Below, piece by piece: positions 10,249-62,833 of a DNA stretch of 64,000 bases. The position numbers were made by a program, and so were the translations under genes. The notes beneath the pieces were generated by a model. That model was not told the DNA's origin. It did no database searches and saw nothing but the letters and a program-made list of their open reading frames with translations. The stretch's first letter is position 1, and each line of letters opens with the position of its first letter. The stretch spans positions 10,503 to 74,502 of the forward strand of contig CAKSFN010000006.1 in NCBI GenBank assembly GCA_934454405.1. Direction: 5' to 3'. The stretch is from an uncultured Eubacteriales bacterium. GTDB taxonomy: Bacteria > Bacillota > Clostridia > Oscillospirales > UBA644.

Positions 10249-10395
10249 GCCGCCGCGCTTTCGTTCCGCCGGACGCTCTGCCGCCGCGATTTCGCTTCGC
10301 CGAACGCTCTGCCGTCACGATTTCACTTCGCAGGACGCTCTGCCGCCGCGTTTTCGCTCCTCCGAACGCTTCGCCGCCGCGTTTTCGCTTCGCCG
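10249..10395. repeat. 5 x 31-bp GC-rich tandem repeat
   Basis: Units of the form CCGCCGCG(A/T)TTTCGCTTCGCCGAACGCTCTG, read directly after the addA stop. Confidence 0.85.
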
Positions 10396-10412
10396 AAAAA
10401 AAATATTAAGAT

Positions 10413-17011: not shown

Positions 17012-17036
17012 CTCTTGCTTTGTATATCTTTGTTTT

Positions 17037-17136
17037 TTGTGCAGTCAACTGCACAAAGTCGTAAAAATCGTGCGTTTTGTGCAGTCAACCGCACAAATAT
17101 ATAAAAATCATCTGTTTTATGCAATCAACTGCACGA
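17037..17136. promoter_or_regulatory. Three 20-bp palindromes phased exactly 40 bp apart
   Basis: TTGTGCAGTCAACTGCACAA (17037), TTGTGCAGTCAACCGCACAA (17077) and TTATGCAATCAACTGCACGA (17117), with 9-bp arms and a 2-nt centre. Confidence 0.6.
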
Positions 17137-17282
17137 ATTTGCAACAGGGGTTATCGGCAAGAATAAAATATTTTATACTGTTAAATCGTGTGATTTTCGC
17201 TGTTGAATTTACCGTTTATTGCCGATAACGGCAAAGAACGAGCATTGTTTTATTATCCAGCCTTTTTTGTTATTGAAATTGA

Positions 17283-24300: not shown

Positions 24301-24873
24301 TCACAGCGCGTAAAACAGCACGCCCAGCACCGCCGAAAACAGAAGCAGGATTATAGGGGAGAGTTGCTTTTTGCGCAGCAGTTTGTATCCTGCGGCAGCG
24401 GCGCCGATAACCGCAAACATCACAATTCTCTTGATGTTCGGCGCAAAGCCCGAGCCGACGGCGGAAAAGCCGAAAAGCGTTTCAAGCGCCATAATAAGCG
24501 CCGTTGCAAGTATCATCGCGATTATGCACGGGCGAATGCCGTTCAGAAATGCCTGCACGCCGCCGTATTTCATCAGCCGCTTCATCGCAAGCGCAATAAG
24601 CGAAATGATGATAAAAGACGGAAGCACGACCCCGAATGTCGCCGCAAGCGCGCCGAAAAAGCCGCCCTGTGTCGAGCCGACGAACGTCGCCATGTTTATC
24701 GCAAGAGGTCCGGGTGTCGATTCCGAAACCGCTATCATATTAAGAAATTCACTTTCGGCAAGCCACTCATTTGAGATAACGGTCTCGCGTATCAGGGAGA
24801 TCATGCCGTACCCGCCCCCGAAAGAGACCGTGCCTATCATCAGAAAATTGAGAAAGAGTTGAAGATATATCAT
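24301..24873 (-). CDS. chrA: Chromate transporter family protein (second half-size subunit)
   Basis: 190 aa, multi-TM. N-terminal FGGGYGMISL motif typical of the CHR family, paired with 25505-26104. Confidence 0.85.
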   Translation of the reverse strand: MIYLQLFLNFLMIGTVSFGGGYGMISLIRETVISNEWLAESEFLNMIAVSESTPGPLAINMATFVGSTQGGFFGALAATFGVVLPSFIIISLIALAMKRLMKYGGVQAFLNGIRPCIIAMILATALIMALETLFGFSAVGSGFAPNIKRIVMFAVIGAAAAGYKLLRKKQLSPIILLLFSAVLGVLFYAL

Positions 24874-25004
24874 TTTCTATCGCCTCTTTCTGTCGTTAAT
24901 ATAAAATCTTTTATTCATCTTGCGGATTTCTTTTTGTTTTTGTAAAAGGTATTGTTTTTATGGGTTTACGGAAAGATTCATAATATATCTGCTGTGCCTG
25001 AAGA

Positions 25005-25440
25005 GTGCATAGCCTTTTTCTTTCCGCTTTGCGGAGTTTGCGTCGTTTTTCGCAGGCGAAAAGCCGAGCAAACAGTATTATCCGATTTTGGGCGAAGAAA
25101 AGCCCGTTTTCACAAGCCTGACAGTGTTGCTTTTGCCCTGTTTTATTGTCTCGTCGCTTAAAATACGAAAGTATTCTCGCACTCCTCGACTTCAAAACAG
25201 AACAAAATCAAGGCTGTCAGGTCGAAGAGTTTCACGGAGATAATGTTTTTCTCCGTGAAACGGTCACTTTGAAGCAATACTTTGTGTATTGCAAGAAGTG
25301 AACGCAATGCGGAGGGAAAGATTAGCCCGTGAAACCTTATGAGAACGGACTTTTCTTCGCCCTTACGCCGTGCGATAGTTCGTTCCTTCGAACGAACCGC
25401 ACATGGCTAATCGCAAAAAATGCAGCGGCTTTTTTGCGAT
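25005..25440 (+). repeat. Structured interspersed element, family 1, copy A (carries a nested insert)
   Basis: Its 79-nt left part and ~75-nt right part are near-identical to 26421-26585. The right part is the core ACGCCGTGCGA-[hairpin]-CGCACATGGCT-[hairpin]. Confidence 0.8.
25090..25362. repeat. Nested ~273-bp insert closed by an inverted repeat
   Basis: GGGCGAAGAAAAG(C)CCGTT..CAC at 25090 pairs with GTGAAAC...CGGACTTTTCTTCGCCC ending at 25362. It is absent from copy B. Its internal blocks match the insert at 62208-62482. Confidence 0.75.
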
Positions 25441-25508
25441 GCCGTAACCGCCCCGAAAGAGACCGTGCCGATCATCAGAAAATTGAGAAAGAGTTGAAGA
25501 TATATCAT
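25439..25508 (-). pseudogene. Duplicated, frame-broken 5' fragment of the downstream chrA
   Basis: 70 nt matching 24803-24873 with 2 substitutions and a 1-nt deletion. It keeps the ancestral ATGA overlap with the stop of the upstream chrA. Confidence 0.8.
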
Positions 25509-26104
25509 TTTTTGCCCCCTCTTTCCCGACATCTGCCGATAAGGTAGACCGCCACTCCGAGCGCGCCGCATATCAGAATGTAGAAAATCGAGGAGAACGA
25601 AACGGAGAACAGCGAAACCGCTGTCATGGCAGCCGCGACCGCGACAGCCACCGCGATATTGAACGCGTTTTTCTTCATTTCTTTCAGCATTTTCAGCCCT
25701 GCCGAGAATATCAGAAAGACCACTCCGACCCGTATGCCCTCAAATGCATAGCGGACGTATTCAAGCCCGAGGAATCTGTCCAAAAACAGCGAAATGACAT
25801 AGATTATAAAAAACGACGGCATACATATCGCCAAAGTCGCAACCGCCGAACCCGCAAGCCCGGCGATTTTACTTCCGATATAAGTCGCCGCGTTGACCGC
25901 GATGGGTCCCGGCGTCGATTCGGCGATAGCAACTATATCGAGGAACTCATCCTCGTCTATCCAATTCTTTTTGCCGACCAATTCGGCTTCCAGCAGGGCA
26001 ATCATTCCGTAACCGCCGCCGAACGTGAAAGCCCCGACCTTGAAAAAGGTGAGAAAGAGCGTCAAAAGGTTTTTAAGCTTGCTGTTTTTCATATTGTTTG
26101 ACAT
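25505..26104 (-). CDS. chrA: Chromate transporter family protein (first half-size subunit)
   Basis: 199 aa, multi-TM, with the FGGGYGMIALLE motif. Confidence 0.85.
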   Translation of the reverse strand: MSNNMKNSKLKNLLTLFLTFFKVGAFTFGGGYGMIALLEAELVGKKNWIDEDEFLDIVAIAESTPGPIAVNAATYIGSKIAGLAGSAVATLAICMPSFFIIYVISLFLDRFLGLEYVRYAFEGIRVGVVFLIFSAGLKMLKEMKKNAFNIAVAVAVAAAMTAVSLFSVSFSSIFYILICGALGVAVYLIGRCRERGGKK

Positions 26105-26182
26105 CTGTTATTTTATCCGCGAAAATAATATTTATATTCCCGATATTTCGTCTCGCCGCTTCGTCTCCGCTCCGCGGCTTCG

Positions 26183-26234
26183 CCGCCGCTCAACTCTCGC
26201 AACGACGCTTCGCGCCGTCCGAGGTTTCGCGGAA
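26183..26234. repeat. 52-bp GC-rich repeat, copy 1 of 3
   Basis: CCGCCGCTCAACTCTCGCA.CG.C...CGCGCCGTCCGAGGTTTCGCGGAA. Further copies are at 27248 and 27408. Confidence 0.75.
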
Positions 26235-26420
26235 AACAAAAAAGATACCATTGTTCAGAAAAACAAACCAAAAGTAATTGATGTTTTTTTTCGGTTATAT
26301 CGGCAAGTGCGAAAAGTGTTTGCGGAGCAAACAGGGGAATTGCTGAAAAGACGAAGCTATTTGTTAAATACGCAAAGTACGGAATCTGTTAGCTGAAGCA
26401 CACAGGGGACTCCCCGAAAT

Positions 26421-26585
26421 GTGCATAGCCTTTTTCTTTCCGCTGCGCGGAGTTTGCGTCGTTTTTCGCAGGCGAAAAGCCGAGCAAACGGTATTATCCT
26501 ATTTTTATACGCCGTGCGATAGTTCGCGCATACGCGCAAACCGCACATGGCTAATCGCAAAAAATGCAGCGGCTTTTTTGCGATG
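26421..26585 (+). repeat. Structured interspersed element, family 1, copy B (no nested insert)
   Basis: Same left and right parts as copy A. The inner hairpin differs (GCGC-ATAC-GCGC versus GTTCGTTC-CTTC-GAACGAAC) but stays paired. It ends 1 nt before the stop of the next gene. Confidence 0.8.
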
Positions 26586-26586
26586 G

Positions 26587-27099
26587 TTATGCCTTTGTTA
26601 TGTTCGGTATGAGCCAGCTGAACGCCGACGAGCCGCCCGCGCAGATAAGTCCGACCGCTATCGCCGCGCATATAACGCCGCAGCATATCGCGGGAAATGC
26701 GCGCTTGAATTTGATGTCAAGCAGGGAAGCGACGAGCGTTCCCGTCCACGCGCCCGTGCCGGGCAGGGGAATGCCGACAAAGAGAGCCAGCCCGATAAAA
26801 AGCCCGATACCGGTCTTGCCCGAAAGTTTTTTTCCGCCCTTTTCGCCTTTTTCAAGGCAGAACGTGAAGAATTTGCCTATAAATTTTTTGTCCTTGCCCC
26901 AGACAAGCACTTTTCTCGCAAAAAAGTAGATTATCGGAACGGGAACGAGGTTGGCAAGCGCCGAAATTATGCAGACCTGAACTATCGGCAGGTCGTAGCC
27001 GAAAAAGCCCGTCGGAATTGCGCCGCGCAGTTCGACAACGGGAACCATTGAAATAAGAATTATCCAAAGCCACGGGTATTTTGTAAAGAATGCGGACAT
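26587..27099 (-). CDS. COG2426-type small membrane protein (putative small multidrug export protein)
   Basis: Start at MSAFFTKYP, preceded by AGGAGA. Has a VVELRGAIP motif and 4-5 TM helices. Confidence 0.7.
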   Translation of the reverse strand: MSAFFTKYPWLWIILISMVPVVELRGAIPTGFFGYDLPIVQVCIISALANLVPVPIIYFFARKVLVWGKDKKFIGKFFTFCLEKGEKGGKKLSGKTGIGLFIGLALFVGIPLPGTGAWTGTLVASLLDIKFKRAFPAICCGVICAAIAVGLICAGGSSAFSWLIPNITKA

Positions 27100-27247: not shown

Positions 27248-27299
27248 CCGCCGCTCAACTCTCGCATCGGCACGTCGCGCCGTCCGAGGTTTCGCGGAA
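27248..27299. repeat. 52-bp GC-rich repeat, copy 2 of 3
   Basis: Near-identical to 26183-26234. Confidence 0.75.
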
Positions 27300-27407
27300 G
27301 GCCGAACGATACCGCATATATTATATATTAAATCAACGAAAAAAACAAGTTACTGTTTACATAATTCCTGTAAAGATCCTGTAAATTACATAAATCTTTC
27401 CGTTTCT

Positions 27408-27459
27408 CCGCCTCTCAACTCTCGCATCGGCACGTCGCGCCGTCCGGGGTTTCGCGGAA
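27408..27459. repeat. 52-bp GC-rich repeat, copy 3 of 3
   Basis: CTCAACTCTCGCATCGGCACGTCGCGCCGTCCGGGGTTTCGCGGAA. Confidence 0.7.
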
Positions 27460-27556
27460 AGCCGTATCATATATCACTTTTTATGGGCTGTCAAATCAAC
27501 AAAATTCTGTTTTTTGCTTATTTTTGAAGCATAAACCCTGTTTGGTTCTTGGTTTT

Positions 27557-43382: not shown

Positions 43383-44152
43383 TATTTCTTTCTCTTGGAA
43401 ACTCGGCTCCGCTTCGGTGGGGTCGAGTTTCATTTTAATAATATATATGAAAGTATTTAGTTTGCGCAGGGAAAAATAGTTCGGCGAAATAAATTCGCCG
43501 AAGACCGGTCGATCCGATACGCCGTGCGAAATTGTTGCTGCGCAACACGCACATGGCTGTTCTCAAAACGGCGGCGCGTTTTGAGATTTTCTTTCTCTTG
43601 GAAGAGGGGCTTCACTTCGGTGAAGTTTCTCTTCATTTTAATAATATATATGAAAGTATTTAATTTGCGCAGGGAAACATAGTTCGGCGAAATAAATTCG
43701 CCGAAGATATATTGATTTGATACGCCGTGCGAAATTGTTGCTGCGCAACACGCACATGGCTGTTCTCAAAACGACGGTGCGTTTTGAGAGTTTCTTTCTC
43801 TTGGAAGTGCGGCTCTGCTTTTGCAGGGTCGCGCTTCACTTTATTTATATGTATTGTATTTAAGTGTTTAGTTTTCGCAAGGAGTAATAGTTCGGCGAAC
43901 TAAATTCGCCGAAGACCGGTCGATCCGATACGCCGTGCGAAATTGTTGCTGCGCAACACGCACATGGCTGTTCTCAAAACGGCGGCGCGTTTTGAGAGTT
44001 TCTTTCTCTTGGAAACTCGGCTCCGCTTCGGTGGGGCCGAGTTTCACTTTATTCTCTTGGAAGTGCGGCTCCGCTTCGGTGGGGTCGAGTTTCATTTTAA
44101 TAATATATATGAAAGTATTTAGTTTGCGCAGGGAAACATAGTTCGCCGAAGA
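43383..44152 (+). repeat. Tandem array (about 3.7 units of 203-208 bp) of hairpin-dense, apparently non-coding units
   Basis: CTCTTGGAA recurs at 43392, 43595, 43798, 44006 and 44054. Each unit holds 5 hairpins in a fixed order. The first hairpin has three unrelated but fully paired sequence variants. Confidence 0.9.
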
Positions 44153-45054: not shown

Positions 45055-45168
45055 AAAAAAATCTTTCGGAATGAAAATCCAAAATCCTGCGGAATGAAAC
45101 CTCGAAATCTTTCGGAATGAAATCACGAAATCCTGCGGAATGAAATCTTGAAATCTTTCGGAATGGTA
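45055..45168. repeat. 5 x 23-bp tandem repeat abutting the -35 box
   Basis: CGGAATGAAA at 45067, 45090, 45113, 45136 and 45159 (the last copy is degenerate: CGGAATGGTA). Units alternate CTTTCGG and CCTGCGG, giving a 46-bp super-unit. Confidence 0.85.
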
Positions 45169-45197
45169 TTGATATTTTTCAAAAATTGTGGTATACT
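45169..45197 (+). promoter_or_regulatory. Sigma-A type promoter
   Basis: TTGATA-17 nt-TATACT. Confidence 0.6.
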
Positions 45198-61679: not shown

Positions 61680-61709
61680 AAAAACAGTCCTCGAAAGAGG
61701 GCTGTTTTT
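61680..61709 (+). terminator. Rho-independent terminator after tRNA-His
   Basis: AAAAACAGTCCTC-GAAA-GAGGGCTGTTTTT. Duplicated at 62153-62182. Confidence 0.75.
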
Positions 61710-61720
61710 GCTTTTGGGAC

Positions 61721-61881
61721 GGGTAAAGGAATTAACGAACCTGTTTCGCGCAGCGAAACAAGGTTCGTCGCAGCAGCGATTTTTGCAAAGCAAAAATCGA
61801 CTGTGAAGTCGCGAGTGAGCAAAAAACTTCGGGCACCGCATCAGCGGTCGAAGTTTTGTGAAACGCAGCGTACCCCTTTAC
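61721..61881 (+). repeat. 161-nt cloverleaf-like structured element, family 2, copy 1
   Basis: Closing stem GGGTAAAGG/CCCCTTTAC around three hairpins: ACGAACCTGTTTCGC.., CGATTTTTGC-AAA-GCAAAAATCG and AAAACTTCG..CGAAGTTTT. Confidence 0.8.
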
Positions 61882-61946
61882 TCGGCGTAAAGTTTTGATA
61901 AGACAAAAATAAATGAAATGTTGCGGTTGTTTTTTATTTTCGGGGT

Positions 61947-62107
61947 GGGTAAAGGAATTAACGAACCTGTTTCGCGCAGCGAAACAAGGTTCGTCGCAAC
62001 AGCGATTTTTGCAAAGCAAAAATCGACTGTGAAGTCGGGAGTGAACAAAAAACTTCGGGCACCGCATCAGCGGTCGAAGTTTTGTGAAACGCAGCGTACC
62101 CCTTTAC
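61947..62107 (+). repeat. Family 2 element, copy 2
   Basis: Differs from copy 1 at 3 positions by eye. Its 5' flank GGGGTGGGTAAAGGA is the complement of the tRNA-His 3' end. Confidence 0.8.
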
Positions 62108-62152
62108 ATTGCATGAAGTTATAACAAGGCAAAAAAGGGAAAATTGACGAAA

Positions 62153-62182
62153 AAAAACAGTCCTCGAAAGAGGGCTGTTTTT
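62153..62182 (+). terminator. Duplicate of the tRNA-operon terminator
   Basis: Identical hairpin and downstream GCTTTTGGGACGGGTAAAGG as at 61680-61729. Confidence 0.7.
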
Positions 62183-62193
62183 GCTTTTGGGAC

Positions 62194-62628
62194 GGGTAAA
62201 GGGATTTGGCTGAAAATGACCGAACTCTCATCGGTTTTGACGGGCTGATTTTCGCCCTGACTTTCGCAAAAGCCTTGTAAATACGTCAAGTATTCACTAC
62301 GGCTTTTTTGTCGTTATGACAAAAATCCGCACCGTGAAAACTGCCGGCACCCGCCACAGAGAAATTTTCGAGGAATTTTTTCTTTTTGAGACGCAGGCGG
62401 GCTGACGCCCGCCAAGACGAAAAGAGAGAAAATAACCGAAAATAGCCTGTGTCGGGCGATAAGAGTTCGGTCATTTTCAGCCGTTAACCTGTTTCGCGCA
62501 GCGAAACAAGGTTCGTCGAAACGGCGGAAAAAGGAACTTTTTCCGACCGTGAAGTCGCGAGTGAGCAAAAACTTCGGGCACCGCATCAGCGGTCGAAGTT
62601 TTGTGAAACGCAGCGTACCCCTTTACCC
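62194..62628 (+). repeat. Family 2 element, copy 3 (swapped middle hairpin, carries a 275-bp nested insert)
   Basis: Same closing stem (GGGTAAAGGG/CCCCTTTACCC) and outer hairpins. The middle hairpin is replaced by CGGAAAAAG-GAA-CTTTTTCCG. Confidence 0.8.
62208..62482. repeat. Nested 275-bp insert with perfect 21-bp terminal inverted repeat
   Basis: GGCTGAAAATGACCGAACTCT (62208-62228) and AGAGTTCGGTCATTTTCAGCC (62462-62482). Its internal blocks match the insert at 25090-25362. Confidence 0.8.
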
Positions 62629-62833
62629 TGCGTAAAGTTTTGATAAGACAAAAATAACGGCAGGATTTCCTGCTCGTGGAAGCGCGACGGCGGCAAGGTC
62701 ACCTTTGAAATAAGCGTTCCTCCCAACACTTCCGCGCGTTTTTGCGCCTGCGGTGTTGACAGGGAGCTCTCTGTCGGCGCGAATGTGATTGAGGCTGAAA
62801 TAAACTGAAACGAACGCGCAATTTAGCTGTTAT

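Follow-up and report, generated by a model that had tools for sequence, protein, structure and literature searches.

The pattern termed insertion with long target duplication was established for restriction-modification genes by comparing genomes (Nobusato et al. 2000; Furuta, Abe and Kobayashi 2010; PMC2853133). Typically, the empty site is found in a relative, the flanking direct repeats are variable and longer than 30 bp, and no mobility gene is present (PMC2853133). The repeats often span a translation start or stop, and the target gene is left undamaged (PMC2853133). Known cases comprise single restriction-modification insertions of several kb, mostly in naturally competent bacteria (PMC2853133). 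For short DNAs, long target duplication has only been suggested (PMC3457768). Long direct repeats of variable length (8-514 bp) are also described for IS1634/IS1549, for which there is no mechanistic model (PMC2266710). These are elements of 1.5-2 kb with a DDE transposase and terminal inverted repeats (PMC2266710).

Here we analyzed a chromate transporter locus in a stretch of 64 kb, referred to as the window, from an uncultured gut Clostridia species. The locus resembles insertion with long target duplication in several respects: a relative carries the empty site with one copy of the repeat, the direct repeats are variable and exceed 30 bp, no integrase, transposase or tRNA is associated and the gene remains intact. 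In contrast to the described cases, the insert is a non-coding repeat of 150-310 nt which carries no gene, one repeat family recurs within one species, and the donor is seemingly local. Since the insert is non-coding, the match is to the pattern and not to the described cargo. With IS1634/IS1549 the locus shares the long and variable direct repeats of target DNA around a repeated element, but the repeat lacks a gene, inverted ends and conserved termini, and a DDE transposase of the IS1634 family was not detected in the 64-kb window.

Integrative elements that restore their attachment site need an integrase and carry one fixed att. As in these elements, a direct repeat of a gene end brackets the insert and the gene is intact; unlike them, the repeat consists of the local target and is different at each locus. 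MITEs are characterized by inverted ends and short target duplications. The repeat family shares with MITEs, with the BIME/REP sequences of enterobacteria and with the BOX elements of pneumococcus that it is short, non-coding, rich in hairpins, modular, present in many copies, lineage-restricted, intergenic and co-transcribed. It differs from MITEs by the lack of inverted ends. None of these sequences is known for flanking duplications of tens to hundreds of bp by which gene ends are regenerated. The case is thus a variant of a mechanistically unexplained pattern, recurring here with a short non-coding repeat.

Organization of the chrA1/chrA2 locus

The two transporter genes fit the short-chain CHR (chromate ion transporter) type, which consists of two adjacent half-size PF02417 genes with an ATGA overlap as the usual state. 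While most genes of the window lie on the forward strand, the chr genes lie on the reverse strand and are thus probably oriented head-on to the replication fork. The features of the locus are given below in gene order (positions refer to the window).

26364-26587, reverse strand: neighbouring repeat copy with modules R-L-M, directly after the Sm_multidrug_ex stop and upstream of chrA1
25505-26104, reverse strand: chrA1, upstream half-size chromate transporter gene, 199 aa, intact (ORF list; PF02417; NCBIfam CHR models)
25439-25525, reverse strand: T1, upstream target copy, 87 nt, from -22 to +66 relative to the chrA2 ATG, which holds the ancestral ATGA junction (same register as the single copy at empty sites)
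25407-25508, reverse strand: stub ORF of 33 codons, MIYLQLFLNFLMIGTVSFGAVTASQKSRCIFCD (ORF list)
25364-25438, reverse strand: module R of the repeat family with two hairpins (sequence comparison; structure prediction)
25090-25363, no strand assigned: nested element of 274 nt with inverted ends of 27 nt (inverted-end and allele comparison)
24997-25089, reverse strand: module L of the repeat family with two further hairpins (sequence comparison; structure prediction)
24891-24996, reverse strand: unique AT-rich tail, 106 nt, 27% G+C (sequence comparison)
24803-24890, reverse strand: T2, downstream target copy, 88 nt, which gives the intact chrA2 its RBS and first 22 codons (alignment)
24301-24873, reverse strand: chrA2, downstream half-size chromate transporter gene, 190 aa, intact (ORF list; PF02417; CHR family models)

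At 25505-25508 the chrA1 stop overlaps a start codon (ATGA), which is followed by 22 chrA2-like codons as originally predicted. The real chrA2 start is located 631 nt downstream of the chrA1 stop. The two target copies form direct repeats of 87 and 88 nt with 81 matches. Their similarity is not due to chance, as the match reaches a BLAST E value of 1e-27 within the window; no third copy was found in the 64 kb. In the coding portions (70 versus 71 nt) the copies differ by two substitutions and a 1-nt deletion, exactly as counted by eye before. The duplication reaches about 17 nt further upstream than first described, through GAAAGAGG. The insertion between direct repeats is real, but its predicted boundaries (565 nt between repeats of about 70 nt) have to be revised: the insert proper comprises 548 nt (24891-25438), flanked by T2 and T1, and the repeat of 87/88 nt is, as had been pointed out, far longer than a duplication of the transposase type. 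Because the repeat continues upstream, the RBS of chrA2 belongs to the duplicated target; the earlier assignment of a new RBS to the AT-rich stretch was incorrect.

In gene order, the insert consists of module R, the nested 274-nt element, module L and the 106-nt AT-rich tail. The left junction between T1 and module R reads GG/CATCGC (the slash marks the junction), and hairpin 1 of module R has the form ATCGCAAAAAA-loop-TTTTTTGCGAT. For the tail, a single weak similarity to the repeat family was observed (AAAAACAATACCTTTTAC versus AAAAACAATACCAATTAC). Only short and spurious ORFs were found in the insert, which represents non-coding repeat DNA.

The duplication covers the chrA1 stop as well as the RBS and start of chrA2. 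Consequently, chrA1 retains its end in T1, which includes its last approximately 22 nt, and chrA2 retains its start in T2. Both transporter genes are whole in every filled allele. The sole by-product of the insertion is the 33-codon stub, which starts at the old ATGA overlap and stops within the repeat. It represents the chrA2 5' end reading into module R, up to a TAG just 3' of hairpin 1, and is annotated as a gene of 33 aa in other assemblies. In the lineage of the window, T1 carries a -1 indel and the hairpin loop a +1 indel, which jointly preserve the same stub stop; this compensation may be a coincidence.

Judged from the gene arrangement, the insertion breaks the translational coupling between chrA1 and chrA2, while the stub appears to remain coupled to chrA1. 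A simple scan for promoters and terminators in the insert and upstream of chrA2 yielded no site of at least 9/12. Since no convincing promoter or terminator is predicted in the insert, chrA2 is probably transcribed by read-through. Module M of some copies at other loci contains the promoter-like sequence CTGACA-N18-TATAAT. This is not a general property of the module, and a promoter for chrA2 carried by the element is unsupported.

Empty and filled alleles of the chrA2 junction

Conspecific contigs with 92-97% nucleotide identity were obtained from metagenomes. The chrA2 junction is empty in 11 of them (L091, L097, L101, L104, L109, L111, L114, L117, L119, L122, L123), where one 88-nt stretch can be aligned with T1 as well as with T2. 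The window, L001-L003, L005, L089, L090 and L121 carry the insert, always with identical junctions on both sides. The nearest relative found (L088, 82% aa identity) shows the ATGA overlap and no insert. In a search of genome contigs for chrA relatives the best match reached 67% aa identity, and the species of the window itself was not among the matches. Among 79 related species, the chrA pair overlaps by ATGA in 69, and in nine a spacer of 61-125 nt separates the pair. The proposed empty site was thus detected in conspecific strains, in the nearest relative and in most other species, in agreement with the original view of a normally coupled pair which was split by an insertion.

Two other explanations were named with the original prediction, namely that the extra 635 bp are an ancestral spacer or an assembly artefact. 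The nine related species with spacers could be taken as a hint for the former, but empty alleles occur within the species and in the nearest relative, which rules out an ancestral spacer. The latter is ruled out since identical junctions were recovered in independent ENA, NCBI and JGI assemblies, among them the 1.3-Mb contig CBFFOQ010018168.1 of GCA_965643355.1. We therefore regard this explanation as extremely improbable. [quoted passage not shown]

Further loci of the repeat family

A metagenome scan with the module R pattern resulted in 34 stretches, by which about 12 genomic sites were sampled. As had been proposed as a check, family copies beside duplicated gene ends were found at several loci. 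Apart from chrA2, the repeat family is bracketed by long direct repeats at about five places. The repeats have lengths of about 40-160 nt and match the respective locus:

chrA1 start: duplication of 79-89 nt (L090, L091, L111, L118, L122); empty in the window and in L001
start of a TM1266-family hydrogenase regulator gene: duplication of 35-95 nt, 100% identical in L120
hydG, just upstream of the ATG: duplication of 54 nt; empty in L099 and L113
between hydF and nhaC: duplication of about 40 nt
pyridoxamine kinase 3' end: duplication of at least 112 nt

Empty alleles are thus known for the chrA1 and hydG sites as well as for chrA2. For the site between hydF and nhaC an empty allele was sought, and the contigs are rearranged or chimeric. 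Since the flanking repeat differs from locus to locus and matches each local target, the duplicated gene end is a copy of the local target and not cargo of the element. The variation within the chrA2 target is consistent with this. Its polymorphisms (AATTTT versus AACTTC, and others) are standing variation at empty sites and are found in T1 and T2 of filled strains. For example, L111, L122 and L123 have an empty allele to which T2 of L089 is identical, and the only difference between T1 and T2 of L090 concerns the junction base.

These data bear on the likeness to integrative elements which the original prediction had drawn from the regenerated gene end. According to this explanation, the element would carry its own att-like chrA2 5' end and would have been integrated by site-specific recombination, with the recombinase lost or acting in trans. 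The order of repeat, insert and repeat with a regenerated gene end is the architecture expected for such an element. However, the flanking repeats are specific for each locus and match the local target, the T2 alleles equal alleles of the empty site, and neither a common att or core sequence across the loci nor an integrase was found, which makes this origin very improbable. No motif common to the target cut positions was detected at the loci where these are readable.

Structure and distribution of the repeat family

The conserved core of the repeat extends from CATCGC at the foot of hairpin 1 through the modules R, L and M to a -10-like hexamer. In some copies, R is preceded by a semi-conserved module U of 30 nt. 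R-L is predicted to fold into four hairpins. Two base pairs in the stem of hairpin 2 exist in two compensating states, which swap between loci and, at one locus, between strains; these swaps indicate frequent gene conversion among the repeat copies. No match in the repeat was obtained with Rfam at the gathering threshold, where only three tRNAs were identified. The tRNAs are located 36 kb from the insert, and no tRNA target is associated with it. The family is lineage-restricted: the chrA loci of 80 related species lack the repeat, and the one exception is an R module which the nearest relative carries.

The length of the insert in the window (548 nt) results from an element of 274 nt that is nested in a repeat of the 150-310-nt class. 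Its inverted ends (27 nt) are 89% complementary, and it is the only part of this locus in which inverted ends were seen. At the chrA2 insert the nested element is present in the window, L002 and L005 and missing in L001, L003, L089, L090 and L121; the alleles without it are otherwise identical. In L103, L109 and L117, further copies of the repeat contain the same element at the identical position. The nested element is a later event than the insertion of the repeat.

Several properties of the family would be expected if the repeat were a non-autonomous mobile element that is moved in trans by an enzyme recognising the R hairpins. This enzyme could be a transposase that cuts at widely separated positions, as for IS1634/IS1549, or a nickase of the HUH type which acts at the foot of the hairpin and reads through to a variable extent at the opposite end; the long duplications would then be its signature. 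Long and variable duplicates flank the same family at six or more loci, and direct repeats of 8-514 bp are produced by IS1634/IS1549 (PMC2266710). The hairpin stems are conserved with compensatory changes. After the Sm_multidrug_ex stop, module R occurs by itself as a discrete unit that is found in some cases and missing in others. In addition, the copies cluster in one orientation in consecutive intergenic regions, both at the chr locus and at the hyd locus, as in local hopping. Three independent left junctions (chrA2, chrA1, TM1266) share both the reading frame and the exact base, CAT/CGC at the hairpin-1 foot. Such precision looks more like a specific site than like random switching of templates, which speaks for keeping an enzyme-based model in view.

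On the other hand, neither inverted ends nor conserved termini were found in the repeat family: no two of the inserted segments have the same right end, and in the presence of module U the left ends are different as well. The composition of the segments also varies, with R-leader at chrA1, R-L-tail at chrA2 and U-R-L-M-tail at hydG. Furthermore, no gene for a transposase, integrase, HUH protein or recombinase was found by Pfam analysis in the flanks or among the 29 large ORFs of the 64-kb window, nor near the copies examined, including a solitary R copy (L116) without adjacent mobility genes; that no recombinase gene is nearby had already been noted in the original prediction. The insert is, moreover, closest to the adjacent copy. 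We regard movement in trans as rather unlikely.

Origin of the insertion

We favour an origin by host replication or repair, and not by an integrase or a classical transposase. The full statement, that a local repeat copy was inserted together with a target duplication through template switching during replication or repair, seems to us slightly more probable than its negation. In this process, a nascent strand would leave chrA2 at position +66 and re-anneal where hairpin 1 of the upstream repeat has its foot, via a microhomology of 3 nt (CAT). It would then copy a few hundred nt of this repeat and return to chrA2 at position -22. The copied segment would correspond to R-L plus the tail, most likely with the repeat of the same orientation 1.1 kb upstream as donor. 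Of these events, selection would retain only those in which a gene boundary lies within the duplication. Afterwards the nested 274-nt element was inserted, the two target copies exchanged sequence, as did copies of the repeat, and strains recombined homologously with each other.

Local copying during replication or repair is favoured by five observations: the similarity to the upstream copy, the tandem duplications at chrA1, the CAT microhomology, the variable ends and lengths, and the clustering in one orientation. R-L of the insert differs from the copy 1.1 kb upstream by five substitutions and one gap, compared with 15-22 substitutions to copies at other loci. Variant 1 of the hairpin-1 loop and the ATAATAC linker are common to the insert and the upstream copy and confined to this locus. 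On the basis of these sequence similarities, the neighbouring copy (26364-26587) is the likely donor of the R-L part. The left junction TACGG/CATCGC can be compared with the donor flank AACCAT/CGC, and the CAT microhomology could form this junction. At chrA1, the stub alleles are plain tandem duplications which start at the same upstream repeat; in L121 a perfect tandem duplication of R-leader-target is found, and two stubs are present in L089. Neither the segment ends nor the duplication lengths are constant between events.

Other observations do not fit template switching as well. For the 106-nt AT-rich tail, and for the tails at other loci, neither the window nor about 1.3 Mb of loci contained a donor, which argues against it. 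In all filled alleles, T2 has a cluster of three mismatches from -14 to -9, which also counts against the favoured view. With about 12 genomic sites of the family sampled, an autonomous partner may exist at a distance. The similarity to the neighbouring copy could derive from later gene conversion, which is clearly active, as seen from the hairpin-2 swaps and the polymorphisms shared by T1 and T2.

The tandem duplications at chrA1 (L121, L089), which have the same kind of junction, also suggest an origin of the chrA2 insert in two steps. First, unequal sister exchange would have produced a tandem duplication of about 1 kb that begins with the upstream repeat and ends at chrA2 +66. An internal deletion would then have removed the second chrA1 and left the repeat and an 88-nt remnant. 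The resemblance of the insert to the upstream copy would be explained as well, and a route via tandem duplication has been considered before (PMC3457768). The deletion could be mediated by the 8-nt sequence CAGATGTC, which occurs just upstream of the chrA1 ATG and beside the left edge of the duplicated target. But no intermediate with two chrA1 genes was present among about 30 contigs, the right junction AACGACAG/AAAGAGG is not as predicted for a deletion mediated by CAGATGTC, and the tail matches no sampled upstream haplotype. The same rare second step would also have to recur at hydG and TM1266. We consider two such steps to be quite improbable.

Template switching remains our preferred reading, and the shared left junction can also be taken further than above. 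The repeat family might represent a new kind of non-autonomous mobile element. A nickase or recombinase acting in trans would cut CAT/CGC at the foot of hairpin 1, copy from this fixed end to a variable end and paste the copy, always with duplication of tens to hundreds of bp of the target, and the left module would give the stub its stop codons. We regard this as a speculative and unlikely idea. If true, the element could land on gene starts and inside operons without killing genes, and the enzyme behind the long-unexplained insertions with long target duplication would be exposed.

Implications of the chrA2 insertion

Short ORFs which repeat the N-terminus of a gene can be scars of insertions, and this should be taken into account for annotation. 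The locus also shows how two translationally coupled genes can become separated with both of them preserved. [quoted passage not shown] Here, one gut Clostridia species repeats the pattern with a short repeat family, and empty and filled alleles circulate. This provides material to study the mechanism: many independent junctions, a likely adjacent donor, a candidate hot spot at the hairpin foot, and a natural system for new events.

Flanking duplications at other loci

Locus-specific flanking duplications of the repeat family found within the chrA2 insertion were identified at four further sites (L120 minus strand ~3669 and ~5493; L098:185-600; L106 minus strand ~8098; L-numbers denote fetched comparison loci). 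They are located at the following positions:

start of the TM1266 regulator gene
upstream of hydG
between hydF and nhaC
3' end of the pyridoxamine kinase gene

Three copies of the family, all in one orientation, are located within ~6 kb of the hydrogenase maturation locus. In L105 (7233-7766), the hydG-site repeat is fused directly to the nhaC flank. Either two repeat copies recombined and hydG-hydF was thereby deleted, or the assembly is chimeric. The TM1266 stub is fused to the chrA1 leader in L097 (coverage 1.5), a join which is probably chimeric.

Duplication of the chrA1 5' end

A subset of strains carries a stub duplication of the chrA1 5' end, of the same kind as that of chrA2 (L089:3548-4060; L121:8527-8940; also L111, L090, L091, L118 and L122). 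These alleles consist of the ATG with ~19 codons, followed by module R of the repeat, a leader and the real chrA1. L089 carries two chrA1 stubs, and in L121 the unit of ~270 nt forms a perfect tandem duplication. The chrA1 stub duplication is absent from the window and from L001. All four combinations of presence and absence of the chrA1 stub and the chrA2 insertion were found among the strains.

The 8-mer CAGATGTC occurs ~15 nt before the start codon of chrA1 (window 26117-26124) and again at the chrA1 3' end (25526-25533). In both places a duplicated target has its left edge within a few nucleotides of the 8-mer; this target is that of the chrA1 stub in the first case and that of chrA2 in the second.

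An independent case was identified between chrA1 and chrA2 of Candidatus Coproplasma excrementipullorum (L061:5886-6000). Here, the ATGA of chrA1 is followed by a stretch of ~45 nt that resembles the start of chrA2. An unrelated filler of ~70 nt separates this stretch from the real chrA2. The filler contains an inverted repeat and does not belong to the repeat family of the chrA2 insertion in the window.

Variation within the repeat copies

Hairpin 2 of module R occurs in two compensating versions, GTTCGTTC...GAACGAAC versus GTTTGCGC...GCGCGAAC. The following window positions were compared with the corresponding positions in L001, L089, L098 and L110:

25380-25400, hairpin 2
26524-26544, hairpin 2

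One locus can carry either version, depending on the strain, and between the window and L001 the versions at the two chr-locus copies are swapped.

An element of 274 nt, bounded by 27-nt inverted ends, was found at window 25090-25363 and also in L103, L109, L117 and L116. It is inserted at one and the same position, after GGCGTA, in several different repeat-family copies, and is polymorphic, being present in some strains and missing from others. The shared position reflects either targeting of that site or spread between repeat copies by gene conversion.

Stop codons and the repeat

The stop codon of Sm_multidrug_ex is located within GCATAACC|ATCGC (window 26585-26592). The hydG insertion likewise has ATAACC at its left end, so the repeat may provide the stop of this gene. 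Module R is precisely absent at this spot in L111 and L089.

In the window lineage, the target copy T1 shows a 1-nt deletion and the hairpin-1 loop a 1-nt insertion (window 25407-25470 compared with L001:3639-3740). Jointly, these changes preserve the TAG at which the chrA2 stub ORF terminates in other lineages, which could be a coincidence or a constraint on the position of the translation stop.

Other intergenic repeats

A second repeat family (CCGCCGCTCAACTCTCGCA...CGCGGAA) is located between RNase HII, Sm_multidrug_ex and chrA1, with three copies in the window:

26183-26259
27248-27324
27408-27484

L001 lacks ~357 nt of this family between RNase HII and Sm_multidrug_ex. Further tandem or dispersed intergenic repeats were found in the window:

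43385-44150
61680-62657
10249-10403
45059-45173
17035-17154

These comprise a 203-nt unit present three or four times, 226-nt units adjoining three clustered tRNA genes, and arrays whose periods are 31, 23 and 40 nt. Intergenic repeats are unusually abundant in this genome.
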